From Candidatus Yanofskybacteria bacterium RIFCSPHIGHO2_02_FULL_43_17 (GTDB lineage Bacteria; Patescibacteriota; Minisyncoccia; 2-02-FULL-40-12; GWA2-44-9): a stretch of 55,501 nucleotides of DNA. The position numbers were made by a program, and so were the translations under genes. Under the pieces are notes generated by a model that was not told the origin of the DNA, did no database searches, and saw nothing but the letters and a program-made list of their open reading frames with translations. Positions 14 to 36,880 of the stretch are shown here, piece after piece. Positions within the stretch are counted from its first letter, which is position 1. Each line of letters opens with the position of its first letter. The stretch lies in NCBI GenBank assembly GCA_001794435.1, contig MGJU01000013.1:157196-212696 (forward strand), given 5' to 3'.

Positions 14-757
14 TCATTTTTTGGTAAATAGGTTGTATTTGATGATATGGAAAATTCCCGCCAATCCATCTTTCCAGTTAATTTTTTTACCCTCTTCATA
101 GGTACGGCCTCTATAAGATATCGGTACCTCTATTATTCTAAGATTCAATTTCCCCACCCAGGCAGTAAGTTCCGGATCAATTCCGAATCGCTTAGATGCA
201 AGATGGGGATATATTTGTCTCATCGCATTTCCCGAAAACACTTTATAACAAGTGTACATATCGGTCAGTCGAACACCGCTCAAAACGTTAGAGAACCAAT
301 TCAGCGCTTGGCTGAACAAATAACCGTGTTTATAAACAATCTGATTGTTCGATTTTGTTTCGAGAAAGCGCGACCCGTAAACAACGTCGACTTTCCCATC
401 AATGATCGGCGCAATGAGAATAGGGTATTCTTTAGGGTTATACTCCATATCAGCATCCTGGATAAGCACGATATCGCCAGTCGCTTCCTTGAATCCCCTC
501 TTTACGGCCACCCCCTTGCCTTGATTCTTCTCCAAAAAAATCACCCTGTGGATAATCGACTTCGCAAGTCGATTATCCACAGCTGTAGGTATGGATCTCA
601 GGATTTCCCGCGAACCGTCGGTTGAACAATCGTCAACGATAATTATTTCCTTTTCAAGCGACAACTCCACGCTTTCCACGGCAGAAATAAGCTGGGACAA
701 TGTCCTTTCTTCATTAAAAACAGGTATTATTATGCTTAACTTTCTAAATTGAGTCAT
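14..757 (-). CDS. Family 2 glycosyltransferase, Dpm1/Ppm1/GtrB-like polyprenyl-phosphate sugar synthase
   Basis: 247-aa ORF with GT-A motifs IIIPVFNEE, VDDCSTDGS, QDADMEYNP; carries an in-frame REP palindrome at 546-582 (read as VDNRLAKSIIHR). Confidence 0.8.
   Translation of the reverse strand: MTQFRKLSIIIPVFNEERTLSQLISAVESVELSLEKEIIIVDDCSTDGSREILRSIPTAVDNRLAKSIIHRVIFLEKNQGKGVAVKRGFKEATGDIVLIQDADMEYNPKEYPILIAPIIDGKVDVVYGSRFLETKSNNQIVYKHGYLFSQALNWFSNVLSGVRLTDMYTCYKVFSGNAMRQIYPHLASKRFGIDPELTAWVGKLNLRIIEVPISYRGRTYEEGKKINWKDGLAGIFHIIKYNLFTKK
546..582. repeat. REP palindrome copy 1 (17-bp arms, 3-nt loop), inside GT2 CDS
   Basis: ctgtggataatcgactt-cgc-aagtcgattatccacag, perfect inverted arms; identical to copies at 18514, 20279, 30223, 30500, 31217. 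Confidence 0.95.
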
Positions 758-7231: not shown

Positions 7232-9481
7232 TCAGAGTTCTCTACCTAAGCTTTTCACAAACACTTCGGCATCACCCCTAAAAGACGGGTCAACTTGAAC
7301 CGCTTTGCGAGCCGTTTCTACGGCATCGTCAATCCTGCCCAAGTTTGCATACGCAGTCGCCAGTGACGCATAGTATTGAGGTTCGTTTGGATTTATTATT
7401 ATAAGCTGTTCATATATCCAAGCAATGCGGCCAAAATCATTTGTTTTTAGATATGCGCTAATCAGCCTCTGAAAGTCAACTTCGCGCGGATAATATGGAT
7501 ATTCGGCATTAAGAGCTCTCTCCAAATCCTCTGCCCCGCCCAAATCACCGCTTTCTATCTTAGCCGCCCCCAAATAAGCATGGGATATCCCCGCTTTGGG
7601 ATTTAAATCGGTAGCTTCTTGAAAATATTTAATTGCGTTGGAATAATCTTTTTTATTCAAATATGCTTGAGCTATTTCATAATATGTCCTGACGAAAGCA
7701 GGCGAGAGCTCAAGTGCTTTCATTGAATATCCCAAAGCCGCGTCATTATACGGCGACTCAGTATCGTCTTTGCCAAGTAAAATATTTAATCGGGATATAT
7801 ATAAGTATGGCAGATAGTCAATTGGATTCTCTTTAATATTTTTTTCTACCTCCGCCATTGTAAATTTATAGACCTCTCTAACTTTTTCTTCTTTAACGCT
7901 TGGCCCGCCGACACCAACCAAATATTGCGCGAGACGATGTCTGTATTCATACTTTCCGGGAACATCATAAGACAACGCTTCTCTATATTTTTCAACGGAG
8001 CCGTTAAAATCACCGGCCCAACTTCTGACAATGGCCCTGGTCGTCGCGTAGTTCGCTTTGGCTGGCAATATATTTGTCTTATATATTAAGACCGGGACAA
8101 AAAACGCAAAAAGCACTCCTAGTACGCCGATCGTGGAAATATTTTTTATTATCGGCTTAGCCACGCGCGGCTCCTCTTTATCTTTTGTGCCCAAATAGGA
8201 CACAAACCCCAAAATAGTAAAGAAAACTACAAAATTCGCCGACGTATCAAATATAAAGGAGTTGTGAATCATATAAGCAACTGTTGCGGAGATAAAACCG
8301 ATACCGTACACCGCAAGGTCGTGCTCTTTAAGAAATTTGCGCAAAGAACCAAATAAGGCAATAAAAACATTAAGATAAGCCAGAAGGCCAATTATACCCA
8401 TTGTCACCATAACTTCTATAAACATATTATGAGCTCTGTCAAAAAGCGTCTCCGCTCCGGGGCCCCTAAAAAACTTCGGGTTAAAGTGCCTGGAAAAAGG
8501 AATATTAAAATTCTCCGGACCCCACCCGACAAGAATTGTTTTGGGGCTTTCAATCCATCCCTTAAACCCTGCCTGCCAAGCCCAAAAACGGGTTTGTACG
8601 GTAGTGGCTGTTAGAGATAAATTGGTGACCCTGCTTAAATACCCGGATTTTTTAACAAAAGACGAGTCGTTAAAAATAATAGAAAAAACGCTCCAAAAAA
8701 TAACCGAGCCAATTAAAATTTTTAAGATTAGGTTGCCAAAATGAGATTTATTCTGCCTTGCCCATAAAAACGTAAAGATAATTATCCCCACAGCATAGCC
8801 CAAAAGCGAACCTCTTACGGCAGTCATCAATATTGCAATAGAATTTAAAATAAAAGCGCTTAGATACCATGTCTTGTGTTTGTGGTTGATTTTGGAACTG
8901 AAATACATTGTTAAAGCTAAAAATGCAATTAATATCTGATAACCAGCAAATAACGCTGCGTTTCCAAGAGTTCCAAAAATTCTAGCCCTGTCCCCCGAAC
9001 CGACAAAAAATTCTATGGATGTTTTTTGGCCAAAACCATAAAAAGCCGACAAGACGCCGGCAAATATGGTCAAATTTAATAATTTTTGCCAGTGTTCTCC
9101 CTTGGTTAAAATAGAAGTTAAAATTATATAAAACAAAAAGTAGTGCCAAAATGTCCAAAGCCCGCCCATTCTTTCCAAAGTTCCCCAAAAACTCTGATAG
9201 GGAATAACACTGGTTATGGTGGCTACCGTAAAAGCAAGAACAAACAAAAGAAAAGACCAAAATATCTTGTCGAGACGAGGCAGATAAGATTTGTTTTGTA
9301 AAATTAGTAATAAATAAATAACGCCCAGAACCTCAATAATGGATCTAAAAACAAGAACCTTTCCAAAGTGAAAAGGAGAAATAAAATCCTTAAAAATAAT
9401 AAGCGGCACAAATACAGTTAAATAAATCCCGAAACGGAGGAATTTGGCTAAGTTGAGTTCTGCCATATTTTGTCTAGTCAT
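7232..9481 (-). CDS. O-antigen ligase/polymerase-like (Wzy_C-type) polytopic membrane protein with C-terminal TPR repeats
   Basis: 749-aa ORF; about 12 predicted TM helices in the first 470 aa, then TPR-like repeats (AQAYLNKKDYSNAIKYFQEA, ATAYANLGRIDDAVETARKA). Confidence 0.55.
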   Translation of the reverse strand: MTRQNMAELNLAKFLRFGIYLTVFVPLIIFKDFISPFHFGKVLVFRSIIEVLGVIYLLLILQNKSYLPRLDKIFWSFLLFVLAFTVATITSVIPYQSFWGTLERMGGLWTFWHYFLFYIILTSILTKGEHWQKLLNLTIFAGVLSAFYGFGQKTSIEFFVGSGDRARIFGTLGNAALFAGYQILIAFLALTMYFSSKINHKHKTWYLSAFILNSIAILMTAVRGSLLGYAVGIIIFTFLWARQNKSHFGNLILKILIGSVIFWSVFSIIFNDSSFVKKSGYLSRVTNLSLTATTVQTRFWAWQAGFKGWIESPKTILVGWGPENFNIPFSRHFNPKFFRGPGAETLFDRAHNMFIEVMVTMGIIGLLAYLNVFIALFGSLRKFLKEHDLAVYGIGFISATVAYMIHNSFIFDTSANFVVFFTILGFVSYLGTKDKEEPRVAKPIIKNISTIGVLGVLFAFFVPVLIYKTNILPAKANYATTRAIVRSWAGDFNGSVEKYREALSYDVPGKYEYRHRLAQYLVGVGGPSVKEEKVREVYKFTMAEVEKNIKENPIDYLPYLYISRLNILLGKDDTESPYNDAALGYSMKALELSPAFVRTYYEIAQAYLNKKDYSNAIKYFQEATDLNPKAGISHAYLGAAKIESGDLGGAEDLERALNAEYPYYPREVDFQRLISAYLKTNDFGRIAWIYEQLIIINPNEPQYYASLATAYANLGRIDDAVETARKAVQVDPSFRGDAEVFVKSLGREL

Positions 9482-9520
9482 AATTGATATAATACCACAA
9501 ATTCATTGCCATTGTTACAA

Positions 9521-10921
9521 TTAATTTATTGGTCTGACCCGATAAATTACTCCTGTCACATCGTCGGAAATATATAGATTTCCGCCATTATCAAACTTAA
9601 GATCGACCGGCCGGCCGTAAACTTCTTTTTTGTTATCGCTTATCCATCCTGAAATAAAATCAACCGGCGCTTGTGATATTACATTTCCGTTTTTATCCAA
9701 ATCATATCTGACAACTTTATACCCCGTCAGTTCGCTTCTGTTCCATGAACCGTGAAAAGCCACCAACAAATCCCCTCCCCACTCCTTGGGCCATATCTTG
9801 ACATCGGATGTCCCTCGGCCATCCGATGTCGTTAATGAATTGCTGGGAACAAAAGCAAGCCCTAACGGCGCCGAATGAGCCGGAATTTCGATAACCGGCG
9901 GCTCCGTCTGACTACAGTCGTCGGTAATATCAATTCGTTCCCATTTTTTCGGGTTAAATTTTTTATCCTTAACTTTATCGCCATAGCAGAACGGCCAGCC
10001 GTAACGACGAGCGCCGAATTTATGTTCCGGACCGGCAACCTTGATAATATTTATTTCGTCCGGCGGCAAGTCATCGCCTAAATTGTCTCGCCCCATTTCT
10101 GTCGCCCATATTTCTTTTGTCACCGGATGAAAGACAAAGAAAACAGAGTTCCTCAAACCGCCGGCAAACTCCGCCGTATAACTGCCTTCAGAATCCGATT
10201 CTAATATCGCCGCTCTCTTCCATGTGCTTTCTTCGCAAACATCACAAGACGAACCGATGCTAATATAAAGTTTTGTGTCCACTTGAGTATTAACGCTTGT
10301 CCCTTCTAATATCTGCTTGGTTCGAAAGTTCGGCCCGAACGCGATAGTTCTAGTAAAATGCCCGCCTGCCGGCGAGGCAGGTCCTCCGTCGGCCGGAAGG
10401 TTGACAATGTTTTCGCCTGTTGTGCTGATAAGCTTACCGACACCTGCATCATAAGAGTATCTATTCACTCGATGCGTTTCGGCGACATATAAATAAACAG
10501 TCCCCGTCTTAGTGTCTTTATAAAAATCCAGTCCGTGAGGCGATTTCAATCCGTCAATCAAAACACGCTTGTTTTCAAAACCGCCACTTGCCCCGAGCAC
10601 TGTCGAGAAATCTAAAATACTGACCCTGCCCGCCTTTGTCTCGCTAATCAGCATTCTGCCTTTTGAGTCAAATACTATAACTCGAGGATTTTCCAAGCCC
10701 CTAGCAACAACAGAAATTTCAAAACCCTCCGGAATATCTAAAAATGGCAGTTCTCCGCCATCCACCGAAACCGTCTCCGGCTCCTTAAATTCCGGGGCGT
10801 TATCGCCAATAAATTTTTTAACAAAATTAAAGTCAGTAAAAAAAAGATGGGCAAAAATTACTACCGTTATCAGCGATACGGCCCATAATTTAAAGTTGGA
10901 AATTAAAAATTTAAAACTCAT
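9521..10921 (-). CDS. PQQ-dependent sugar (glucose/sorbosone) dehydrogenase-like beta-propeller, membrane anchored
   Basis: 466-aa ORF; N-terminal TM; motifs GLENPRVIVFDSKGRMLISE, LKSPHGLDF, YGWPFCYG, PAHSAPLGLAF, GRPVDLKFDNGGNLYISDD; in-frame hairpin element at 9797-9835. Confidence 0.7.
   Translation of the reverse strand: MSFKFLISNFKLWAVSLITVVIFAHLFFTDFNFVKKFIGDNAPEFKEPETVSVDGGELPFLDIPEGFEISVVARGLENPRVIVFDSKGRMLISETKAGRVSILDFSTVLGASGGFENKRVLIDGLKSPHGLDFYKDTKTGTVYLYVAETHRVNRYSYDAGVGKLISTTGENIVNLPADGGPASPAGGHFTRTIAFGPNFRTKQILEGTSVNTQVDTKLYISIGSSCDVCEESTWKRAAILESDSEGSYTAEFAGGLRNSVFFVFHPVTKEIWATEMGRDNLGDDLPPDEINIIKVAGPEHKFGARRYGWPFCYGDKVKDKKFNPKKWERIDITDDCSQTEPPVIEIPAHSAPLGLAFVPSNSLTTSDGRGTSDVKIWPKEWGGDLLVAFHGSWNRSELTGYKVVRYDLDKNGNVISQAPVDFISGWISDNKKEVYGRPVDLKFDNGGNLYISDDVTGVIYRVRPIN
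9797..9835. repeat. T-hairpin element copy T1 (39 nt, short form), inside CDS
   Basis: cttgacatcggatgtcc-ctc-ggccatccgatgtcgttaa; 14-bp arms with 1 mismatch; read in frame as LTTSDGRGTSDVK. Confidence 0.8.
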
Positions 10922-12497
10922 AGATGAAAAATGATTGCCCTATCTTATCAACCGGTTTATACAACGCCAGCCAATTCAAACCAGGATCTTTTCTTTGGTT
11001 GCTTAATAGTTGCATACGGATTAACAAGAAAGTATTAACGGCATACCTGCCTTTCGGCTCCCGCCACCAGCCGGAATCATCGGCCATCATAAAATTCTTC
11101 ACTCCATAGTATTCGGGGCTTGAATTTTTCCACGAATAAACAACTTTAGTATCCGGATTTTCCGCTTGATATTTCCCCAGCCGCTTCAAATCCTGCCCCC
11201 ACTCAACATTGGAATCATCCAAATATTTATACCCGTTTTCCGGCCCCCCGACAAGTTCATTAAAATAGGACATGTGGTCAGGATAAGCGCGGACCGCCGA
11301 AGATATTTGCCAAAGGCCTAAAATCATAATCGCAATCATTCCCGCCCTTATGCTTGTTTTATAATTTCGATATTTCGATATTTCGATATTTCGAAATGTT
11401 TCAGTTATCCCGCCGGCATAAAGAATTAAAAACGGATAAATCGGCAAAATATATCTGATGCTGATATCGTGGGCCTTTATGCTTGTGACAAAAGTAAAGG
11501 AGATCACCGGCAGAAACACGAACACCTTGCCCCAACCGTCCATCTTTATTTTTTTATAAAATAAAATTGAGGTCACAAACACGATAAGGGCGGGGATTGG
11601 TGTTTTTATTACAAACGCTTCCAAAAAGTAGTACCACCAACCGTCAGGCGAGAAATTGCCATTCAGATAAAAATTATAGCCGGGCTTCCAGTCGGCGTAA
11701 ATTGTTCTTAATCCTTTTATATAAAATCCGAGATCAGAAGGCATTAAATAAATGAAATAAAGAATGATAAAAGCCGGGACAATGGCAATCAAAGAAAAGT
11801 TGGCCAACCGACGTATCTTTGTATTGATCTCCCCTCCGCACCGCCATGCGTAAACAAGGATAAACAAAGAGATCACGGGCAGAAACACGATAGCAGAAAA
11901 TTTTGAACCTAGCGTCAAGCCGAGAAAAATACCAGAAAAAACCAGTTGTTTCTTATCGTTGAGCTTGATGAAGCGCCATAAATAGTAAAATGTTATAAAT
12001 GAAAAAGCAGCAAGAGCTAGATCGGTTGTAACAAACTGGGCATTAGCGATAATGACGGGCATAAAGGCATACAGAAATAAGGATAAAAATCCCGCCTTGC
12101 GACTAAATATTTCTGAAGCCCATTTATAAACATAAAAACCAAGCAAAACAGAGATAAGCATCACCGACAGCCGACCCCACAACAGCAACTTGTCCATATT
12201 GTTGGAAGATAGGAAATTTTGGCCAAAGGCCCACTCGTTTCTGATCGGTCCGATTAAATTGGGGTCTTTATCGTTAAATTTAAAATCCATAAAAAGTAAA
12301 GGAAAAGAGGCCAACAATTTTACTAGCGGAGGATGTTGGGGGTTTAGAACAACCTGGCCTGTTTTCCAGTAAGAATATCCGCTTGGAAGATGGGTTATTT
12401 CATCAGTTGCCGGACTGAAATTCTGCGCGCTGAAAAACGGTAGCAGAAAAACGACACTCAATAAAACGATAACGACCGCCTTGTAATACTTAAACAT
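10911..12497 (-). CDS. GT39/GT83 family (PMT/ArnT-like) lipid-carrier-dependent glycosyltransferase
   Basis: 528-aa polytopic ORF; N-terminal loop DEITHLPSGYSYW...NPQHPPLVKLL typical of PMT_2/ArnT enzymes; 11-nt overlap with downstream gene. Confidence 0.7.
   Translation of the reverse strand: MFKYYKAVVIVLLSVVFLLPFFSAQNFSPATDEITHLPSGYSYWKTGQVVLNPQHPPLVKLLASFPLLFMDFKFNDKDPNLIGPIRNEWAFGQNFLSSNNMDKLLLWGRLSVMLISVLLGFYVYKWASEIFSRKAGFLSLFLYAFMPVIIANAQFVTTDLALAAFSFITFYYLWRFIKLNDKKQLVFSGIFLGLTLGSKFSAIVFLPVISLFILVYAWRCGGEINTKIRRLANFSLIAIVPAFIILYFIYLMPSDLGFYIKGLRTIYADWKPGYNFYLNGNFSPDGWWYYFLEAFVIKTPIPALIVFVTSILFYKKIKMDGWGKVFVFLPVISFTFVTSIKAHDISIRYILPIYPFLILYAGGITETFRNIEISKYRNYKTSIRAGMIAIMILGLWQISSAVRAYPDHMSYFNELVGGPENGYKYLDDSNVEWGQDLKRLGKYQAENPDTKVVYSWKNSSPEYYGVKNFMMADDSGWWREPKGRYAVNTFLLIRMQLLSNQRKDPGLNWLALYKPVDKIGQSFFIYEF
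11363..11396. repeat. Octamer tandem array (ATTTCGAT)x4 ending in palindrome atttcgaaat, inside CDS
   Basis: atttcgat atttcgat atttcgat atttcgaa at; translated FRNIEISKYRNYK within the GT39 gene. Confidence 0.85.
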
Positions 12498-12514
12498 TCT
12501 TACGTCATTTTAAT

Positions 12515-12544
12515 CAAAAAACCTTGTTTTTACAAGGTTTTTTG
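12515..12544 (-). terminator. Intrinsic terminator after 12583-13788
   Basis: caaaaaaccttgt-tttt-acaaggttttttg, 13-bp stem with flanking T/A runs. Confidence 0.8.
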
Positions 12545-12582
12545 TCAATTACTTATTTACTAAATTACTCAATTACGGCTAT

Positions 12583-13788
12583 TTATATTGCTTCCAAATA
12601 ATTCCCGTGCACCCAAGCGTCTTGACCTTCAAACGTTATCTTGTGCCATACACCGTCTTGAGCCAAACTTGTCACCACGTCGCCAGCGGTAAGCTGTCCT
12701 AAAACCGCACTTGCAGTACTGGCTGACACTCTGACATTGAGATAACCGGCGCTTGATACAACCTTATATTGATTGGGTGTCGGAACAGAAGAACTGGCTG
12801 AAAAAACACCTCTTGTATAATCCGGTATTTGATTTACTGAAGCATAATCAGTCCCCTTTGGATACCAATTAAATTCGTTGGTGTTGATGCAGAATACTTT
12901 CTTGAAAAATTCCGGATCATCGGCAACGGCCTGCTCGCCGGTCGTATTGACCCAATGGAGCATGCCGGTATCTTCTCCAGTCGTTTCCACGCCATAAACC
13001 TTGGGATCTTCCGTTTCGCAGTTTCTAAAAAGACCCGAAGTTACAAATACGTCTCTTGTTGCAGAAGTAGTGCCCTTAACCTTATCAAATCCCAGATGTC
13101 CGTAAAATCCGAATATAACAGGATTCAAGAATAATCTTTTATAACCGTGGGGATTAACGATATAAACATCCGGATCATCGGAACCGGCGGCGCTAACCAC
13201 GTCACCGTCATTTAAACTCACTGACTCCAAATTTACGAAACCTCTTGAAGCCGGGGTTGCCTGCCCTGAGCTTGTCGAAGGAGCTGGCGTAGGAGTTGCT
13301 GAAACGGCAGGACTTGTTGTGGGAGTAGTAGTTGGTGTTGGTGTTGGAGTACTTGTGATCCCGCCTCCACCGCCTCCTCCTCCGCCGCCGCTGGTACCGG
13401 CAGTACCGCCGCTACTACCACAAGTCGAAGAACTAGGGGTTACTATAACGGTTTGGGTAGCTGCGGCAGTAATGGACAACCGCGATTGGGTTGGTTCACA
13501 AGTAAAGCCGTAACCGCCGCTGTTGGATAAAAGCAGTTGATCCGACGACAAGAGAACTATCGTCTGGTCGGCAGACATTGAAATGGTAATATTTGTGTTA
13601 GTAGATGTAACCTCGTCCACCTCGGAAGAACCGCCCTCTATGGTAATGTTGCCAACACCCAAAGCAAGCGTGGTATTTTGAGCGAAAGTAACAACCGCTT
13701 TTGCCTGATTGACTCCGACCAATAACAGCCCCGCCATTAAAGCGACAACAAGTAACGGCAGAGAAAAGTTAATTTTTAATGTTTTCAT
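12583..13788 (-). CDS. Secreted protein: signal peptide, poly-Gly/Thr-Pro linker, shared 135-aa module, C-terminal bacterial SH3 domain
   Basis: 401-aa ORF; G10 run plus TPTPTPTTTPTT linker; residues 192-327 paralogous to residues 49-183 of 21594-25280; C-terminus YLNVRVSASTASAVLGQLTAGDVV...WHKITFEGQDAWVHGNYL is SH3_3-like. Confidence 0.65.
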   Translation of the reverse strand: MKTLKINFSLPLLVVALMAGLLLVGVNQAKAVVTFAQNTTLALGVGNITIEGGSSEVDEVTSTNTNITISMSADQTIVLLSSDQLLLSNSGGYGFTCEPTQSRLSITAAATQTVIVTPSSSTCGSSGGTAGTSGGGGGGGGGGITSTPTPTPTTTPTTSPAVSATPTPAPSTSSGQATPASRGFVNLESVSLNDGDVVSAAGSDDPDVYIVNPHGYKRLFLNPVIFGFYGHLGFDKVKGTTSATRDVFVTSGLFRNCETEDPKVYGVETTGEDTGMLHWVNTTGEQAVADDPEFFKKVFCINTNEFNWYPKGTDYASVNQIPDYTRGVFSASSSVPTPNQYKVVSSAGYLNVRVSASTASAVLGQLTAGDVVTSLAQDGVWHKITFEGQDAWVHGNYLEAI

Positions 13789-17146: not shown

Positions 17147-19066
17147 CTATTTGATAGTTAGTTGTCGAATAAGTTCCGCTATCAACTTCCCCGTCTCCGG
17201 GTCAACGCTGGAATACTTCAGTCCTTCGTTAAGATCAATGAGCGCTTTCTCTTTGTTGTTAAGGGCGACATAAACAAGCGCGGAATTGTAGTAGACGCGA
17301 GGATTACCGGGGAGAAGTAGTTTTAATTTTTCTATATTTATTACCGTTTGAATAAAATCCCCCCGCTGTGCATAGATAACCGCCAAGTTTTGGTACGGGT
17401 AAAAAAAGCCGGGGTCAATCTCTATGGCCTTATTGAACTCTGCAATCGCGCCCTCAATGTCGCCCCTCGACTGCAATATGCTCCCGATATTAAAATGCGG
17501 CTGGGCAAAATCGTTCCCCGACCCGACGGCTTTTCTGTAATAAAACTCGGCCCGATCCATATCTCCTTGATTAAAATATCGGTTGCCAAGATTATTATTT
17601 ATCTTGATGCTGTCCGGCTCGTATTTGAGAATGTCTTTATAAAATTCGACGGGATTGCCCCATAAGACATTTCGCTGGACAGATTGATAACCAAAGAAAA
17701 GCAGGTAAGCTAGCAAGCCCGTAAGCAATAAGCCACGAAAAATTAGGTTTTTGGATTTTAAGAAATCAAACAGTTTAATCAAATAAAAAGAAGCTATGAG
17801 CCAAAAGCCGACCATCGGCAGATAAAGCCAGTGTTCGTATATTAAGGCGTTGATTGGCGTAATCCCGGAGACCATCGCCAGACCGATGAAAAACCAACCC
17901 GTTCCGAATAGCCAAATTCGGAATGGGAAAATTGTTACATTGTTAAATTGTCGAATTGTTGCACCTTCAGATTGTTGAATTGTTACATTGTTAAACCTCT
18001 CCTTCTTATACATAACAATTAAACAATATAGCAATATAGCAATGATTGTAGCACCAAGCCAGACCGGCCACTGGAACAGCGATGTATGCACCACCATACT
18101 TCGTTCCATATGAAGACCTGTGGGCACGAACAGTAAGCGGAAGTAATCAATCAGAACGTGCATAAAGGTAAAGAGGCGATAAATTATATTTTCCGAATAT
18201 GGGTTGGCTTTACTGTAGAAATTCAGAGTATTTTGAAAATTCAAAACCGTTAAGCGTAATATTCCGTAAACAGCAACAACCCCGAAATAAGGCAATGCTT
18301 CTTTAAACGCGTTCTTGACATCGAACACCTTAACGCCTGATGTCCCGCGGCCATCCAATGCCCGCCCGTCCTCTGGCGCGGTCGTTAATTTATTCTTATC
18401 GGAAAACGCGATATAAAACACCATCAAGAGAAAAGGAAATATAACTCCCGTTTCCCGGCTCAAAATCGCCAAAACAAAAGCCGCCAAAGACAAGGTTTTA
18501 AGCCACCGAAACCCTGTGGATAATCGACTTCGCAAGTCGATTATCCACAGGTAGAGGGCGAGGAGAATAAAGAACACCGACAACGGATCGCCACGGCCGG
18601 AGATATATGCAACAGCTTCGGTGTTGAGAGGATGAATAGCAAAAAAAAGCGCGGTTAAGAAGGCCACAATCTGGCCGGCATATCTTCGCAATAAAACAAA
18701 TACCAGCACTGCGTTGGCAATATGTATTGAGTTGCTTACTAAATGCCAAAGGAACGGTTTCGTTTCGGATACAACCCAATTAAGAGCAAAAGTGAAAAAG
18801 AGGAACGGTCTGTAATAGTTGCTCTGAAGTCCGATTCCAGCTAACGCATTGTTGGAAAACCAAAACTTTATACTTTCCCAATTTATTGAGTGGACGTAAA
18901 CATTGTTGATTATCCAATCATCGTCATCCCAAAAAAGCTCGTTGTTCAAGTTAAAAGAATAGACAAAACCGCCTATTACCACCAGGAATATAATCGGCAA
19001 CCATGCTTCTTTTTTATTCAGCAAGTTCATATTTATACTTTGAAAAAACCGGCCTATTCTTATCAT
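17147..19066 (-). CDS. TMTC-like polytopic membrane protein with C-terminal TPR repeats (paralog of 15210-17072)
   Basis: 639-aa ORF (alternative ATG at 19030); LFWDDDDWIINN motif, multiple TM helices, TPR repeats; contains three different mini-elements in frame. Confidence 0.6.
   Translation of the reverse strand: MIRIGRFFQSINMNLLNKKEAWLPIIFLVVIGGFVYSFNLNNELFWDDDDWIINNVYVHSINWESIKFWFSNNALAGIGLQSNYYRPFLFFTFALNWVVSETKPFLWHLVSNSIHIANAVLVFVLLRRYAGQIVAFLTALFFAIHPLNTEAVAYISGRGDPLSVFFILLALYLWIIDLRSRLSTGFRWLKTLSLAAFVLAILSRETGVIFPFLLMVFYIAFSDKNKLTTAPEDGRALDGRGTSGVKVFDVKNAFKEALPYFGVVAVYGILRLTVLNFQNTLNFYSKANPYSENIIYRLFTFMHVLIDYFRLLFVPTGLHMERSMVVHTSLFQWPVWLGATIIAILLYCLIVMYKKERFNNVTIQQSEGATIRQFNNVTIFPFRIWLFGTGWFFIGLAMVSGITPINALIYEHWLYLPMVGFWLIASFYLIKLFDFLKSKNLIFRGLLLTGLLAYLLFFGYQSVQRNVLWGNPVEFYKDILKYEPDSIKINNNLGNRYFNQGDMDRAEFYYRKAVGSGNDFAQPHFNIGSILQSRGDIEGAIAEFNKAIEIDPGFFYPYQNLAVIYAQRGDFIQTVINIEKLKLLLPGNPRVYYNSALVYVALNNKEKALIDLNEGLKYSSVDPETGKLIAELIRQLTIK
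17931..18045. repeat. 8-nt-period inverted array (ATTGTTNN)n ... (AACAATNN/AGCAATNN)n inside CDS
   Basis: eight 8-nt units at 17931-17994, seven starting ATTGT (17-nt direct duplication attgttacattgttaaa); reverse-oriented units aacaatta aacaatat agcaatat agcaatga at 18014-18045. Confidence 0.75.
18314..18388. repeat. T-hairpin element copy T2 (long, composite form), inside CDS
   Basis: cttgacatcg...ttaacgcctgatgtcccgcggccatccaatg-cccgcccgtcctctggcgcg-gtcgttaa; shares about 55 nt with T4 in opposite orientation; read as LTTAPEDGRALDGRGTSGVKVFDVK. Confidence 0.7.
18514..18550. repeat. REP palindrome copy 2, inside CDS
   Basis: Identical 37-mer; read in frame as LWIIDLRSRLSTG. Confidence 0.95.
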
Positions 19067-20624
19067 TGTTTTTAACCAAGATTATAGCATTTTCGTTAAT
19101 AAACACCACTTTCCAGTCAGAATTCCTAATTATACTTTTTAAGAACGCTTGCCCCCACGGCGTCGCGTCAGTGTGGCCGAAAAATATGAAGTTAATACCA
19201 TATTTGTTGGAAAACTCCTCCCACTTCTCTCTGTTTTCCTGCATCGGCTTGTATATCTCGCTGAAAAATTCTACTGAATATGCCTCCGGGCGGTTATCAA
19301 CGAATACTTTTTCCTCCGGCAATTTCCATATCAGATAGCCGCCAATGTCAAAATTATTGAACATAGGCCCCTCTATATTATTCTTCTTAACAAAACTAGC
19401 CGCACGTTCCAGTCCGTCTGGAACTGAAAAACCGAAAGTTTTTGATAATCTCGCCCATTTATAATAACCTCCGCTCGCCACAAAAAAAATCATAAAAACC
19501 AGAAAAACGACCAGCAACATCTTGGCCGCCCACTGAAGCCTGGCTTCTGCCTGCCTCCAGAAGCCTGGCTTCTGGAAAGCTGAAAACACATCGGTTAGCA
19601 AGATTACCATCACCGGAAAAGATGCCAGCGCGTATAAGGGCAAATTGCGAAGCATCCTGAATCCGGCATAAATAAAGAAGGTGGAAATTAAAATTTCGAA
19701 AATCCTTTCTTTTGTCTTCTTGACGGTCAGCAAAAAAGAAACAACCAGAACCGCCGTTGAGATCTTAAAAATAAAAATCGACAAATTAAAACCGAATAAA
19801 TCAGCCAAAAAAGCAAGCGTTTGGTTTTCAACAATGCTGTAACCATATTCTTTCAGGATATTAAAAGGCAGTAGCGCTCCCTGAATTCCGGCGGGATTTA
19901 TAAGAGTAGCCAATCCGATCAATCCGCCGACCAGTAACAATTTTTGTATTACGTATTTCGTATTTCGTATTATGGGATCAAATAAGCGGTCAATAAAAAA
20001 GGCCAAAAACAAGATTGGGCCGATGAAGAAATAGATGTGGAGGTTAACCCACAACAACTGCGCCAACGGCAAAAACCATAACCAAGACGGAGTTTTAACA
20101 TCGGGAGTCCCGCGGACTTCCGATGTTGTTAATTCGTATTTCGCCTTAAACAACGCGGATAAGAAAAACGCTAGTATCAAAAAACTGAAAATCTCCGGCC
20201 TCACCTCCGTCCGGGAAATAAATATAAATATTGAGAGAACGAAAGAAACAATTATTGGCCAAAAACCTACTCTAACCCCTGTGGATAATCGACTTCGCAA
20301 GTCGATTATCCACAGGGGTTTAATGGTTAAAAGCAAGAGTATAAACGTCGCCAGAACTACAAAAATCTTAAGCAAGATAAGGCCGGTGAATCCGCCCAAA
20401 TTATAGACGCCGTAAAATATTACTTCGCTTAGCCAATGATGATTTGTAAACGGAAAGTCCGGCTCGGTGAAAGAGAATAGGTTGGTTGTCGGAACACTTT
20501 TTGTCTCCCAAATTATCTCCCCTGTCTTCAAATGCCGCCCGATATCCTGGCCGATAGAATCAAAATTGTGAACCAGAAAAACGGCCAGAAGACCGAAAAG
20601 AAGAATAAAAGTCAGGAGTTTCAT
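19014..20624 (-). CDS. Polytopic membrane protein, possibly GT-C-type glycosyltransferase (function uncertain)
   Basis: 536-aa ORF with more than 10 TM helices and a soluble C-terminal domain; contains four different mini-elements in frame; overlaps the start of 17147-19066. Confidence 0.5.
   Translation of the reverse strand: MKLLTFILLFGLLAVFLVHNFDSIGQDIGRHLKTGEIIWETKSVPTTNLFSFTEPDFPFTNHHWLSEVIFYGVYNLGGFTGLILLKIFVVLATFILLLLTIKPLWIIDLRSRLSTGVRVGFWPIIVSFVLSIFIFISRTEVRPEIFSFLILAFFLSALFKAKYELTTSEVRGTPDVKTPSWLWFLPLAQLLWVNLHIYFFIGPILFLAFFIDRLFDPIIRNTKYVIQKLLLVGGLIGLATLINPAGIQGALLPFNILKEYGYSIVENQTLAFLADLFGFNLSIFIFKISTAVLVVSFLLTVKKTKERIFEILISTFFIYAGFRMLRNLPLYALASFPVMVILLTDVFSAFQKPGFWRQAEARLQWAAKMLLVVFLVFMIFFVASGGYYKWARLSKTFGFSVPDGLERAASFVKKNNIEGPMFNNFDIGGYLIWKLPEEKVFVDNRPEAYSVEFFSEIYKPMQENREKWEEFSNKYGINFIFFGHTDATPWGQAFLKSIIRNSDWKVVFINENAIILVKNNDKNRPVFSKYKYELAE
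19534..19575. repeat. 17-nt direct repeat of a palindromic unit (gaagcctggcttc) inside CDS
   Basis: ctgaagcctggcttctg at 19533-19549 and cagaagcctggcttctg at 19558-19574 (16/17 identical); translated QKPGFWRQAEARLQW. Confidence 0.7.
19944..19971. repeat. Heptamer array (NCGTATT)x4, inside CDS
   Basis: ttgtatt acgtatt tcgtatt tcgtatt; translated IRNTKYVIQ. Confidence 0.75.
20095..20132. repeat. T-hairpin element copy T3 (short form), inside CDS
   Basis: ttaacatcgggagtcc-cgc-ggacttccgatgttgttaa; read as LTTSEVRGTPDVK. Confidence 0.8.
20279..20315. repeat. REP palindrome copy 3, inside CDS
   Basis: Identical 37-mer; arms extend to 20 bp (cccctgtgg...ccacagggg, 20276-20318); read as LWIIDLRSRLSTG. 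Confidence 0.95.
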
Positions 20625-20632
20625 TTATTAAT

Positions 20633-20663
20633 AACTTCGCAAGTCCAATGGACTTGCGAAGTT
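20633..20663. repeat. REP-core variant hairpin (no DnaA-box arms), intergenic
   Basis: aacttcgcaagtcca-a-tggacttgcgaagtt; shares the cttcgcaagtc / gacttgcgaag core with the REP; sits between the stop of 20684-21355 and the start of 19014-20624. Confidence 0.6.
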
Positions 20664-25776: not shown

Positions 25777-25870
25777 CGTCCTATTTAGTAATTATATATT
25801 GCCTGTATAGGGCCGCAAGGCCGTCAATTGTGGATAATTAAGTGTTTGTCCAAGAGCGTAGCAATTGGCT

Positions 25871-29691: not shown

Positions 29692-30191
29692 ACTTCGCTT
29701 GGATACTTTATAAACATTACTTCATTTGTATAGTTTCCTGCGGGAATTGTTAATTTTTGTCCTTCAAATTCTACAATTTTATCTTCTTCAACCACGTTAG
29801 GATAAGTAAACGATGCTGCTGTATCATCGCTTTTTTCAGATTTCTTCCATATTTTTTTGGTATTTTCTAGTTCAAAAATAAATTCTTCCAGACTATCGGA
29901 GCTTTGAAATTTTTCAAATGTTTCCTGCCAATTATCCTGTTTTTCCAATATAAAATACTTACTTGCCAACTCAACATCGCCGTCCTTAAGAGCCTCAATG
30001 AACATATCGTAGGTTTCTTCGGGAGTAGCGCCGCCGTAGGTGTCGGCGTAATAGGGCTTCTCTATTTTGTCGTAAGCACGTTTTAACTGCCAGCTTTTGT
30101 AGCCTGGAAGAAACCAAACAACAGCCAACACAACCAAAATTAAAACCGGCACCCCGGTCCAGCTCTTAAAAATATTTTTCCAATTCAACAT
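29670..30191 (-). CDS. Membrane-anchored hypothetical protein
   Basis: 173-aa ORF; N-terminal TM; 22-nt overlap with the start of the 1231-aa gene. Confidence 0.45.
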   Translation of the reverse strand: MLNWKNIFKSWTGVPVLILVVLAVVWFLPGYKSWQLKRAYDKIEKPYYADTYGGATPEETYDMFIEALKDGDVELASKYFILEKQDNWQETFEKFQSSDSLEEFIFELENTKKIWKKSEKSDDTAASFTYPNVVEEDKIVEFEGQKLTIPAGNYTNEVMFIKYPSEVWKIEGL

Positions 30192-30222
30192 GAAATAAGG
30201 TGGCTAAAGCAAAATCACACAC

Positions 30223-30259
30223 CTGTGGATAATCGACTTCGCAAGTCGATTATCCACAG
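30223..30259. repeat. REP palindrome copy 4, intergenic
   Basis: Identical 37-mer, loop cgc; 39-nt with flanking c/g. Confidence 0.95.
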
Positions 30260-30499
30260 GTTACTATCGCCAACAACACACGAAAAAGGCGAAGCGTTAA
30301 ACTTTTGTAACCTGCCACAATCTATTATACAAAAGTTAGACCAGCAAGTTAAGGAGGGACATGACTTACCGTTCTAACAAGTACAATTAAAATCGCGGCA
30401 GATTATAAAAATTCAAAAAAATAAAAACAGAAGCTAGCGTCTGTATAGATAATTCTTTATCAAATCATCCTTTCCTAGTCAATACTGTAAGCTCACAAC

Positions 30500-30536
30500 C
30501 TGTGGATAATCGACTTGCGAAGTCGATTATCCACAG
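30500..30536. repeat. REP palindrome copy 5, immediately 5' of the RAYT gene
   Basis: Identical arms, loop gcg (opposite orientation to copy 4); ends 13 nt before the ATG at 30550. Confidence 0.95.
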
Positions 30537-30549
30537 GTATACTGCTGGA

Positions 30550-31215
30550 ATGGAAAATGTTTATCACACATTAAATCGTGGAGTAGAGAAACGAGAAATC
30601 TTTATGGATAAACAAGATTATCTTAGATTTATCCACAATCTTTATGAGTTCAATGACGAGGATAGGATTGAGAATTCTATCAAGATTTTTCTAACTGATC
30701 CTAAGCTAGCCGATACTACTACTAGAAAGAGAAGAAAAACCCTCGTTGATATTCTTGCTTTTTGTTTGATGCCCAACCATTATCACCTGATGCTTTCACC
30801 GCAAGTCAAAAACGGAATTCCCAAGTTTATGGCTAAAGTTAATATCGGTTACGCCAAATATTTCAACCAAAAATACGAAAGAGTTGGCGCATTGTTTCAG
30901 GGAAGATACAAACAAGTACCAATCACTGACAATACTCATTTTCTCCATTTGCCGTTCTATATTCACTTTAACCCCCTCGACTTAAAATTTCCGGAATGGA
31001 GAGAAAACAAAATAGCAAGTCCGCAAAAGACGCTCGAGTTTCTCGAGTCCTACAAATGGAGTAGCCACTTAGAATATCTCGGCGTAAAAAATTATGGCTC
31101 GGTTTTAAATAAAAAAGTTTTAAACGAAGTTTTCGATGGAAGCGCCGGTTATAAAAAACTTGTTGAGACATATCTAAAAGACATCCAGGTAGATAGCGAA
31201 GTTTCTCTTGAATAA
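30550..31215 (+). CDS. REP-associated tyrosine transposase (RAYT; IS200/IS605-like HUH Y1 transposase family)
   Basis: 221 aa from the ATG at 30550; HUH motif in LMPNHYHLML, catalytic Tyr context FQGRYKQVPI, N-terminal YHTLNRGVEKREIF; flanked on both sides by REP copies. Confidence 0.8.
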   Translation: MENVYHTLNRGVEKREIFMDKQDYLRFIHNLYEFNDEDRIENSIKIFLTDPKLADTTTRKRRKTLVDILAFCLMPNHYHLMLSPQVKNGIPKFMAKVNIGYAKYFNQKYERVGALFQGRYKQVPITDNTHFLHLPFYIHFNPLDLKFPEWRENKIASPQKTLEFLESYKWSSHLEYLGVKNYGSVLNKKVLNEVFDGSAGYKKLVETYLKDIQVDSEVSLE

Positions 31216-31216
31216 T

Positions 31217-31253
31217 CTGTGGATAATCGACTTGCGAAGTCGATTATCCACAG
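31217..31253. repeat. REP palindrome copy 6, immediately 3' of the RAYT gene
   Basis: Identical arms, loop gcg; starts 2 nt after the RAYT stop; lies between convergent genes so may also terminate both. Confidence 0.95.
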
Positions 31254-31269
31254 GTGGGACTATGCGGAG

Positions 31270-31995
31270 TTATCTAAGGTTTCGGTTTTTGCGGACGAGA
31301 AGATTGGCTTGGTGGAGTGACTCAAATGTACCGGCATCTATCCAGAACTTCTTAGTTTTGATGAAGTCCATTGTGCCTTCATTAATATAGCGGTTGTTCA
31401 CATCAGTTATCTCATACTCACCTCGAGCAGACGGCTTGAGCGATTTGATAACATCAAAGACACGGTTGTCGTACAAATACAATCCGGTTACCGCCCAGCT
31501 GGAAGGTGGCCTTTTTGGTTTTTCGATGATCCGTTCAACCTTATGACCTTTGAACTTGGCTACGCCAAATCTCTTCGGATCCGGAACCCGCTTCAAGACA
31601 ACGGCCGCACCTTGGTCTCTTTTATCAAAACTGGCGAAGGCCTTACTGAACTCATCGCCGAAAATATTGTCTCCCAGGATAAGAGCAATTTTCTGGCCGT
31701 CAGAAAATGATCTGGCGAGGCCGAGGCCGTGGGCAATCCCAACTGGCTCCACCTGAATCGTGTAGTAGAGGTTCACACCAAATTCTTCGCCTGAACCAAG
31801 CAATCTGACATACTGCTCCGTATGTTCAGGGCCACAGACGATAAGTATATCTTTAACCCCGGCCTTTTTCAGGGTTAAGATGGGGTAGTATATTATCGGC
31901 TTATCGCCTACGGGAAGAAAATGCTTACCCGCTACTTTTGTGACCGGCCAGAGACGAGTACCTTTGCCCCCAGCCAAAACAACTCCCTTGATCAT
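31270..31995 (-). CDS. Sugar-phosphate nucleotidyltransferase (glucose-1-phosphate thymidylyl/uridylyltransferase-like)
   Basis: 241-aa ORF; N-terminal LAGGKGTRLWPVT signature of the NTP_transferase family. Confidence 0.8.
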   Translation of the reverse strand: MIKGVVLAGGKGTRLWPVTKVAGKHFLPVGDKPIIYYPILTLKKAGVKDILIVCGPEHTEQYVRLLGSGEEFGVNLYYTIQVEPVGIAHGLGLARSFSDGQKIALILGDNIFGDEFSKAFASFDKRDQGAAVVLKRVPDPKRFGVAKFKGHKVERIIEKPKRPPSSWAVTGLYLYDNRVFDVIKSLKPSARGEYEITDVNNRYINEGTMDFIKTKKFWIDAGTFESLHQANLLVRKNRNLR

Positions 31996-35579: not shown

Positions 35580-35625
35580 ATAAAGTTAAAAAGTTATAAA
35601 GTTTATAATAATCAGTATAAACTTT
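35580..35625 (-). terminator. Octamer array (ANAAAGTT x3) plus 10-bp hairpin overlapping the stop of the GH1 gene
   Basis: ataaagtt aaaaagtt ataaagtt; hairpin aaagtttata-N8-tataaacttt (35598-35625) includes the last codons SLY and the stop. Confidence 0.6.
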
Positions 35626-36880
35626 CGACTTTTAACTCGTTCTCTCTACATATTTTAGCATATTCATAAGCTGAAGGACGAATTTTTCTTTCTAGCGTCG
35701 CATAATCAATTTCAACTAACCCGAACCGGGGTTTAAATCCAAGATGCCATTCAAAATTATCCAAAAGAGACCAATATAAGTACCCGCGCACATCAACACC
35801 GTCCTGGATGGCCTGCCAGATCCATCGCAGATGATCTTTGATAAATTTTTCTCTTTGCAGATCGGCTCCGTCAGCAATCCCGTTTTCGGTTATGAAAATA
35901 GGTTTTTTAAACTTACTTAAATCCTTCAATACATGATAAATTCCTTCCGGATAAATTTCCCAGTTCATTTCTTTCATAAATTCCTGTTTTGAAACAAGCT
36001 TCTTATTTTCACCAAAAAACGGTTTTCTACTTATGTGATAGTAGTTAAGACCTATAAAGTCGTAGTGGGGGGTATTTTCTTTAAAAAAATAAAAATTTCT
36101 GAAACGCTTATACATTCTCCTCACCAGTATCGTCCAAAAATTTTTTGTATCTGGAACATAAACGTTATTCTCTGTTATTCCCACCATTACATTGTGCGAC
36201 GTTAGGAAAGATTGACTTGAATTAGACGAAACATCGTATATTTTCTTTACCTCTCGATAGGCGAGTACGTGTGCCTTAGATATATTTCTTCTCATTCTTA
36301 AGAAATTTAAAATACCTCGACCTCTCGAAGGCCAAATAGCTGTTAAGTTGGTATATCCGGCATATACCGTAAGAGCTTCATTAAAAGTTATCCACAGCCC
36401 CACCTCGTCCTTTAAGTTATCCACAACATACTTTGCATACCTTGTAAAGTACTCGGGCGATTTTTTATTTAAGAACCCCCCCTTTTCCGCAAACCAGATT
36501 GGATTAGTAAAATGCCAAAGCGTTACCATCGGCTCCATTCCCCTGTCCCGCAAAACCTTGACTAAACGTTGATAATGTTTGATAGCTTCAAAATCGAACT
36601 TCCCCTCTTCCGGTTCTATACGCGACCACTCGATAGAAAAACGGTGAATGTTTTGATTCAGTTTTTTAGCAATATCGAAGTCTTCTTCATAGCGGTTGTA
36701 GCTGTCGCAAGCACGACCGGAAATAAAATCAGAGGGTGTTTTCCCCTCTTTCTTTAGTTGAGCAATTCTTTCAGGCGAACTTTCCCATTCGGACCAATCA
36801 TTGTGGTTGTTGCCTTCAATCTGATGAGCCGACGTAGCGCTCCCCCACTTAAATCCGTCGGGGAATTTATAAATAGACAT
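35612..36880 (-). CDS. GH1 family beta-glucosidase
   Basis: 422-aa ORF; FKWGSATSAHQIEG, WITFNE (acid/base), ITENG (nucleophile), WSLLDNFEW. Confidence 0.9.
   Translation of the reverse strand: MSIYKFPDGFKWGSATSAHQIEGNNHNDWSEWESSPERIAQLKKEGKTPSDFISGRACDSYNRYEEDFDIAKKLNQNIHRFSIEWSRIEPEEGKFDFEAIKHYQRLVKVLRDRGMEPMVTLWHFTNPIWFAEKGGFLNKKSPEYFTRYAKYVVDNLKDEVGLWITFNEALTVYAGYTNLTAIWPSRGRGILNFLRMRRNISKAHVLAYREVKKIYDVSSNSSQSFLTSHNVMVGITENNVYVPDTKNFWTILVRRMYKRFRNFYFFKENTPHYDFIGLNYYHISRKPFFGENKKLVSKQEFMKEMNWEIYPEGIYHVLKDLSKFKKPIFITENGIADGADLQREKFIKDHLRWIWQAIQDGVDVRGYLYWSLLDNFEWHLGFKPRFGLVEIDYATLERKIRPSAYEYAKICRENELKVESLY

Follow-up and report, generated by a model that had tools for sequence, protein, structure and literature searches.

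A probable REPtron-like system in Candidatus Yanofskybacteria: a Y1 HUH enzyme gene set between palindromes that carry DnaA boxes

Systems that combine repetitive extragenic palindromes (REPs) with a REP-associated tyrosine transposase (RAYT) have been described almost entirely from Proteobacteria and a few other phyla, and there as extragenic repeats. A stretch of 55,501 nucleotides (nt; 55.5 kb, hereafter the window) from a metagenome-assembled genome (MAG) of Candidatus Yanofskybacteria, which belongs to the Candidate Phyla Radiation (CPR), raises the question of whether such a system also exists in a gene-dense genome of roughly 1 Mb: it codes for one Y1 HUH enzyme lying between perfect palindromes, and identical copies of these palindromes recur elsewhere in the window inside genes. 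We consider it probable that this locus represents a REPtron-like system in the CPR, in which a single-copy, inherited Y1 HUH enzyme is held between its cognate hairpins and the hairpin family constitutes a non-autonomous mobile element.

The enzyme and its fixed locus

The gene and the palindromes around it are as follows (palindromes are given without a strand):
30550..31215, plus strand: gene for a Y1 HUH single-strand DNA nuclease/transposase of the RAYT kind, 221 amino acids (aa), identified by profile, fold and motifs
30498..30538 (core 30500-30536): upstream flanking palindrome, loop GCG on the plus strand, pairing over 41 nt, with two inverted DnaA boxes and 13 nt between its end and the ATG
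31217..31253: downstream flanking palindrome, loop GCG on the plus strand in the orientation of the upstream copy, starting at the second base past the stop codon
30221..30261 (core from 30223): third palindrome of the locus, with the inverted loop CGC, 240 nt further upstream

The protein matches the Pfam Y1_Tnp profile (PF01797) over residues 53-138 with 37.3 bits against a gathering score of 23, and the same profile is matched by 87 of 90 homologues. A sequence search against the PDB returned marginal matches only (E 0.39); an AlphaFold (AF2) model built from 44 homologues, of moderate confidence (predicted local distance difference test, pLDDT, of 69), displays the expected order of strands and helices. 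Foldseek matches this model to the PDB entries 2a6m, 2vjv, 2xo6 and 4er8 (E 5e-5 to 2e-4, probability 1.0), with the matched folds comprising the TnpA proteins of IS608 and ISDra2, the E. coli RAYT (4er8) and IS200 transposases. Profile and fold thus agree with the IS200/IS605-like Y1 identity that an earlier reading of this DNA (the original prediction) had proposed. Homologues of the enzyme number 17,315 clusters (50% identity) at E <= 1e-3 and 248 at E <= 1e-30.

The HUH motif is H77-Y78-H79, within N76-H77-Y78-H79, and lies on strand 77-84 of the model. Members of this superfamily are expected to have a single catalytic tyrosine on the following long helix, about 58-67 residues after the HUH, and Y137 (in YIHFNP) lies on model helix 128-146, 60 residues past it. 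Across the 90 homologues (32-52% identity) only H6, H77, H79, N106, G113 and Y137 are invariant. Given that Y137 is invariant at this spacing whereas Y120 varies, we take Y137, in a class-2 "Y---NP" motif, to be the predicted catalytic tyrosine. The original prediction had therefore read the HUH motif (NHYHLML) correctly and misplaced the catalytic tyrosine in GRYK; that candidate, Y120, is rejected as it is a phenylalanine in most of the homologues.

The Y---NP motif defines class 2 of TnpAY1 (Quentin et al. 2018, PMC6006769), within which the proteins of subclass 2.1, at a median length of 238 aa, are recognised by NH[YF]H, either FQ or W[EQ], Y[IV]HLNP and a Ser-Ser motif in the tail (PMC6006769). 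Our enzyme additionally displays a 'W-motif' F116-Q117 and a C-terminal tail W170-S171-S172, and by inspection of motifs only (NHYH, FQ, YIHFNP, WSS, 221 aa) it looks like a representative of subclass 2.1 rather than of the proteobacterial REP-associated subclasses. Pfam searches with the query (E up to 1) and the 90 homologues recovered only Y1_Tnp, with no DnaA-C-like or helix-turn-helix (HTH) tail being detected.

The start of the gene is unevenly annotated. The deposited gene call (203 aa, P0001) begins at M19, with the result that the conserved first strand (Y5, H6, N9, R10, G11; 30550-30603) is lost from the deposited protein. Conversely, the palindrome upstream of orthologues is read by gene callers as an N-terminal extension, VDNRLAKSIIHR, and some callers start the orthologue at a GTG inside the palindrome, yielding proteins of 237-238 aa with a spurious MDNRLAKSIIHR extension.

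The neighbourhood was compared across loci of homologues down to 60% aa identity, which were fetched with their surroundings (loci are labelled with L and a number below). In all 33 RAYT loci with enough flank (60-100% aa identity) the gene occupies the same chromosomal site, with a gene for a 173-aa protein on one side, the nucleoside triphosphate (NTP)-transferase and p244 genes on the other, and the RAYT gene on the strand opposite to these neighbours. It is single copy in the window and on each contig. Inheritance at one fixed site is the pattern of RAYTs, unlike that of insertion sequences (Bertels et al. 2017, PMC5581495). Given this constancy of site, the enzyme gene appears to behave like a domesticated, vertically inherited RAYT and not like an insertion sequence.

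The same palindrome family flanks the gene in lineages whose RAYT is at least about 69% identical, and in the orthologous locus L003/L008 the stem of the downstream palindrome is left intact by a compensating pair of changes, G>A / C>T. The third palindrome, which precedes the 173-aa gene of the minus strand by 31 nt, recurs at the equivalent place in relatives (L008 7706; L014 9799).

The palindrome family and its in-frame copies

The palindrome is a 37-mer, CTGTGGATAATCGACTT-NNN-AAGTCGATTATCCACAG, which occurs six times in the window with 0 mismatches, with the loop CGC at 546, 18514, 20279 and 30223 and the loop GCG at 30500 and 31217. None was found in 100 dinucleotide-preserving shuffles, and allowing up to 3 mismatches revealed no additional copies in the window. 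Pairing in most copies reaches 39-41 nt, in the form A-C-(37-mer)-G-T, and the element folded as single-stranded DNA has an energy of -21.1 kcal/mol (z = -12.8 versus shuffles). The three copies away from the enzyme lie within genes:
546..582: copy in a family-2 glycosyltransferase (GT2) gene (14..757, minus strand), in frame and read as AVDNRLAKSIIHR
18513..18551: copy in the gene of a TPR membrane protein (17147..19066, minus strand), in frame and read as LWIIDLRSRLSTG
20274..20320: copy in the gene of a 536-aa membrane protein (19014..20624, minus strand), in frame and read as LWIIDLRSRLSTG, with pairing extending to 47 nt

The original prediction had claimed six identical palindromes, their precise bracketing of the gene with an inverted third copy upstream, and three distant copies inside open reading frames. 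All of this was confirmed, and the open reading frames proved to be real genes (the GT2 gene is recognized by Pfam at 1.3e-31). The palindrome is also far more frequent in the window than expected, and in relatives the orthologous gene is bordered by members of its family.

The exact Y1 protein is also encoded on MGJG01000022.1 (GCA_001794145.1) and on JGI Rifle contigs, while the exact 37-mer is found among species-representative genomes only in MGKI01, another Candidatus Yanofskybacteria MAG. On these grounds the attribution to the CPR, previously suggested by the look of the segment, is correct. Independent assemblies from NCBI, JGI and ENA, made from groundwater of Rifle and Hainich, contain the same elements, which rules out an assembly artefact.

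The wider repeat family was surveyed by a metagenome scan, with both variable stem positions left free, that matched at least 116 stretches from groundwater at two sites; the site counts that follow (128 unique sites, 105 of them with enough flank) are among the matches listed and are inflated by kinship. The variable stem position forms a Watson-Crick pair in 125 of the 128 unique sites (71 A.T, 30 C.G and 24 T.A) and is non-complementary in 3. The occurrence of three pair types with almost no mismatched sites indicates that the pairing of the stem is under constraint. Furthermore, two RAYT-adjacent copies show double compensating stem changes, CTGTAGATAA...TTATCTACAG and CTGTTGATAA...TTATCAACAG; these copies are at L003 6030 (TTATCTACA) and L014 9800 (TTATCAACA).

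The stem pair also varies with the enzyme: it is T.A where the RAYT is at least 86% identical (the lineage of the window), A.T at 71-74% (L014) and C.G at 69-71% (L017). In 8 of 10 multi-locus contigs or bins a single stem variant is present among all copies, and where the RAYT gene is on the contig this variant is that of the gene-flanking copies. Loop orientation is close to even (66 GCG, 60 CGC), and does not depend significantly on which strand of the host gene is sense (23:14). The 37-mer contains GTGG at positions 3-6, base-paired within the stem; the GT[AG]G of classical REPs stands 0-2 nt 5' of the hairpin foot.

The survey extends the in-frame copies well beyond the window. At least 60 codons deep in open frames lie 37 of the 105 unique sites, as against 54% of random positions, so that genes are under-used by the palindromes yet far from avoided. 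The coding sites employ only the two stop-free frames (26 read VDNRL... and 11 LWI...), the third being closed by a TAA in the left arm. At 39 nt, or 13 codons, the commonest unit is stop-free in two of the three frames in either orientation, which suggests that insertions into protein surface loops are tolerated. MGKI01, with 5 perfect T.A-type 37-mers and some variants (compared with 6 copies per 55.5 kb in the window), has in-frame copies in tgt (Pfam TGT, 1e-100) and mnmA, and comparison with the T. maritima structure 2ash shows that the tgt copy falls in a 30-residue lineage-specific loop.

Comparison of orthologous sites reveals filled and empty states. Where the NTP-transferase gene meets the gene upstream of it, five lineages have a copy (both loop orientations occur) and five have none; the window itself has an unrelated terminator-like hairpin at this junction. 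At the GT2 site most of 120 orthologues are without an insert, several have a VD(N/K)RLAKS(I/V/F)IHR insert, the closest relatives have a shorter palindrome with the same termini (TGTGGAGGGC-g-GCCCTCCACA), and others have a derivative, in the third frame, with two direct DnaA boxes around an inner hairpin. Orthologues of the 536-aa protein in L107 and L025 align through the site minus the 13-14 residues. The orthologous sites in tgt and the TPR gene are filled in many lineages, each with its own variant, in one loop orientation or the other and at times as nested or tandem copies. Such shared coding sites may be either hot spots that are used again and again or old copies that have been homogenised. 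Nucleotide BLAST of joined flanks yielded only one recurrent intergenic site as an empty site, and protein-level searches found a few empty orthologues of coding sites, of low identity and too divergent to fix insertion boundaries or a target sequence.

As separate observations on these sites, the GT2 loop is a hot spot with three different palindrome-derived inserts, all ending in TCCACA (GT2 orthologues at L141 2734-3471, L142 3001-3768 and L143 146-862). Nested or tandem copies at the TPR-gene site are seen at L025 ~285-360, L064 ~2100-2190 and L125 ~570-650, where they are translated into peptides such as LWIIDFASRLSTGVDKRLAKS and LWAKPVDKRLAKSFIHR.

Mechanism, DnaA boxes and competing explanations

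From the arrangement of gene and hairpins and from their co-variation we infer that the enzyme could mobilise the palindrome, and analogy suggests a reaction modelled on IS608 TnpA and the E. coli TnpA-REP. Wherever DNA is single-stranded, as at replication forks, the 39-41-nt palindrome would fold into a 17-19-bp hairpin. The enzyme would bind this hairpin and cut at its foot, with the HUH-bound metal and Y137 generating a 5'-phosphotyrosine link, after which the strand would be rejoined elsewhere without target duplication. The tolerance of in-frame copies could then let the element persist in so compact a genome.

Several observations weigh against this explanation. The protein reaches only 41 bits against the cut-off of 80 for the NCBIfam equivalog of REP-associated tyrosine transposases (NF047646), which puts it outside the canonical group. 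Subclass 2.1 has been reported without REPs (PMC6006769). No insertion event was caught in progress among the compared loci, and the match of stem variant to lineage could stem from shared ancestry and gene conversion instead of enzyme specificity. Many coding sites are common to several lineages, so most copies may be old, and copy density is modest, at about 1 per 10-50 kb of sampled contig. The different hairpins of the 60-65% identical orthologues were seen only beside the gene, with none dispersed within +/-10 kb, for which reason dispersal may be confined to one sub-clade. Finally, loop orientation shows no bias to gene or replication direction, though strand-specific transposition of the IS608 type predicts one.

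Any explanation must also account for the DnaA boxes. Each arm of the palindrome holds a perfect DnaA-box 9-mer, TTATCCACA (the high-affinity consensus being TT[AT]TNCACA; PMC6006769), and 12 of the 18 perfect boxes in the window, where 0.65 are expected, are inside palindromes; the chance of a box in a 17-nt arm is ~7e-5. Around the 60-65% identical orthologues other hairpins flank the gene, for instance TAACGACAC-GGG-GTGTCGTTA, and, allowing no more than one mismatch, TGTGGATAA precedes the gene and TTATCCACA follows it. In these sequences, then, the 9-mer is the sole flank feature kept across the whole gene clade, and because it is so kept it probably serves in recognition, by the enzyme or else by host DnaA. 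GC skew is negative over the entire window, with the minus strand carrying almost all genes, which places the window inside one replichore without an origin; a replication origin in the window was rejected on these grounds.

Six perfect boxes occur outside the palindromes, with sites at 25829-25837 (intergenic), 36388-36396, 36417-36425, 15199 and 27189. Those at 36388 and 36417 form a pair 29 nt apart inside a glycoside hydrolase family 1 (GH1) gene (35612..36880), where they encode VVDNL and LWITFNE in the region of the GH1 catalytic motif. In six lineages the box at 25829 and this pair show no difference, although synonymous or intergenic positions next to them do, and there may hence be constraint at the DNA level on isolated boxes.

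The boxes invite an explanation in which the palindromes are host DnaA sites, for titration or transcription control, that have been homogenised by recombination or gene conversion, with the Y1 gene being regulated by them or merely adjacent rather than their mover. The presence of so improbable a match to the high-affinity box in both arms, the conservation over six lineages of isolated boxes (25829; 36388/36417) and the persistence of the box around divergent orthologues whose hairpin sequence differs are all in its favor. However, the double compensating changes described above lose the box and keep the stem, which implies that pairing and not the box is the tighter constraint. Moreover, a regulatory site would not be expected in frame in loops of tgt, mnmA and GT2, or to be filled in one orthologue and empty in another, and the window has no origin. 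We therefore judge this explanation distinctly unlikely.

Alternatively, the palindromes might have spread independently of the enzyme, through template switching or hairpin-primed repair, or by means of an unlinked transposase, with the adjacency of the Y1 gene reflecting a hot-spot effect. This would accommodate the repeated hits on the same sites, the nested or tandem copies with both loop orientations, and the gain of lineage-specific genes between palindromes at the RAYT locus. We regard it as very unlikely, given that the flanking arrangement is kept clade-wide despite differing hairpins, a hallmark of cognate Y1 enzyme-hairpin pairs, and that no other transposase gene was noticed in the list of open reading frames of the window. 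That the 754-bp unit 30500-31253 is an autonomous IS200-like insertion sequence with identical terminal hairpins, and the solo palindromes its footprints or solo ends, appears highly improbable despite the IS200/IS605-like order of hairpin, gene and hairpin in one orientation and the IS608 and IS200 transposases among the top structural matches, because the single-copy gene is found at the same chromosomal site in every informative locus, even at 60% identity, has Y---NP (class 2) in place of the Y---Q of IS200, and is accompanied by solo elements that are full palindromes and not half ends.

Within the preferred reading, of an inherited enzyme with cognate mobile hairpins, the boxes could have a further role. 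Binding of DnaA to the palindromes is suggested by their sequence, and true DnaA-binding palindromes could couple the domesticated nuclease to the replication initiator, a proposal that we put forward tentatively and consider unlikely as it stands. By one route DnaA on the two inverted boxes would unwind the duplex and extrude the hairpin for the enzyme to act on, so that the palindrome would do in the DNA what the DnaA-C domain does as a fusion in sister enzymes of subclass 2.1. By the other, the enzyme would maintain a genome-wide population of high-affinity DnaA boxes, thereby setting the titration of the initiator in the ~1-Mb genome; if true, this titration route would give RAYT/REP systems a concrete host function.

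Relation to known systems and further observations

The REP/RAYT (TnpA-REP) systems of Proteobacteria, or 'REPtrons', were reportedly described by Nunvar in 2010, by Bertels & Rainey in 2011 and by Ton-Hoang in 2012. Like them, the present system has a single-copy, vertical Y1 HUH gene between cognate hairpins and dispersed lineage-specific repeats that co-vary with the gene. It differs from them in its CPR host and in a protein below the NCBIfam equivalog cut-off with motifs like those of subclass 2.1. The proteobacterial repeats are GC-rich, imperfectly paired hairpins that leave a 5' GTAG unpaired, whereas the palindromes here are perfect over 39-41 nt and have a DnaA box as each arm. Roughly one in three of the sites listed is intragenic, and no REPIN/BIME doublet organisation was seen. 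Classical REPs are extragenic and typically present in more than 100 copies per genome, whereas here 3 of the 6 window copies, like the 37 unique sites counted above, are deep in coding frames. The REP/RAYT architecture of the original prediction is supported; the repeats are not strictly extragenic.

A second point of comparison is TIRYT, said to have been described by Di Nocera in 2013. With subclass 2.1 and TIRYT the system shares NH[YF]H, FQ, Y[IV]H(L/F)NP, the Ser-Ser tail, a length of ~220-240 aa and low copy number, and the inverted 9-mers that bracket the divergent orthologues resemble a layout of terminal inverted repeats (TIRs). Subclass 2.1 is reported to lack REP-like hairpins, and the TIRs of its members, GGGG[AT][CG]A[CG], do not resemble DnaA boxes, while some of its enzymes (subgroup 2.1.2) carry a distal HTH or Bac_DnaA_C-like tail (PMC6006769). 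The situation here is the reverse of those DnaA-C-tailed members, with no such domain by Pfam and the DnaA boxes in the DNA.

The TnpA proteins of IS200/IS605 elements (IS608, ISDra2) have in common with our enzyme the fold, the catalytic layout, the hairpin-gene-hairpin order and, presumably, a single-stranded cut-and-paste chemistry without target duplication; they differ in being multi-copy instead of fixed at one locus and in having Y---Q, and our system additionally has identical end hairpins and an extra C-terminal tail of ~80 aa. Rickettsia palindromic elements (RPE) and in-frame miniature inverted-repeat transposable elements offer another parallel, as in-frame palindromes of a small, gene-dense genome that are translated into short loop peptides; however, RPE are 100-150 bp long with no known cognate enzyme, as opposed to 39-41 nt with a linked Y1 gene.

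Full-text literature searches found no paper on a REP/RAYT system in the CPR, which is not proof of absence. The departures from known REP/RAYT systems concern the host phylum, the enzyme subclass, the perfect DnaA-box palindrome and the in-frame coding insertions. If correctly interpreted, the system would be a clean CPR case, in a Y1 subclass thought to lack hairpin repeats, and would illustrate how repeats persist with almost no intergenic space, by way of a 13-codon unit, open in two frames, inside proteins such as Tgt and MnmA. Through the exact DnaA box of either arm the repeats connect with the DnaA-like domains of the sister enzymes, and this suggests a directly testable route by which the nuclease might find single-stranded DNA or affect replication control. 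In practical terms, the peptide signatures VDNRLAKSIIHR and LWIIDLRSRLSTG are a warning for annotation and protein-family construction in CPR genomes.

A few observations concern the locus and its surroundings. Lineage-specific genes without a Pfam match occur at the RAYT locus, each insertion lying between two palindrome copies: L008 7706-9991 contains a 623-aa gene (8017..9888) and L014 10824-14376 a 665-aa and a 161-aa gene (10961..13519). The palindromes may mark or mediate such gains of cassettes.

Between the palindromes at 30223 and 30500 lies a conserved non-coding element of ~100 nt (window 30300-30425, minus strand), with counterparts at L008 7795-7915, L014 9858-9985 and L017 9757-9865 and in L018 and L021. 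It combines an invariant, anti-Shine-Dalgarno-like UCCCUCCUUAA with a closing stem that shows compensating changes and with lineage-variable inner stems, and its minus-strand fold is the more stable (-15.4 versus -9.0 kcal/mol on the plus strand); it has no Rfam match. Since it stays with the 173-aa gene and not with the RAYT gene in L008, it is probably a leader or small RNA of the operon of the 173-aa gene. Across the whole window Rfam at gathering thresholds detected three tRNAs only, and a permissive scan of 30150-31350 only chance miRNA-like matches on the hairpins.

Two additional palindromes were noted. A rarer one, AACTTCGCAAGTC-CAA-TGGACTTGCGAAGTT, consists of two inverted copies of the inner core of the main element (GACTT-CGC-AAGTC) and is found at 20633-20663 of the window and at L014 524-560 and 4407-4437. 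A separate family of 31 nt, GACATCGGATGTC-n5-GnCATCCGATGTC and related forms, resides mostly inside the gene for a giant LTD-domain protein of relatives, with sites at L014 7886-7916, 8057-8087 and 19463-19493 (the last outside the LTD gene), L008 5605-6091, L017 8102 and L018 8076.

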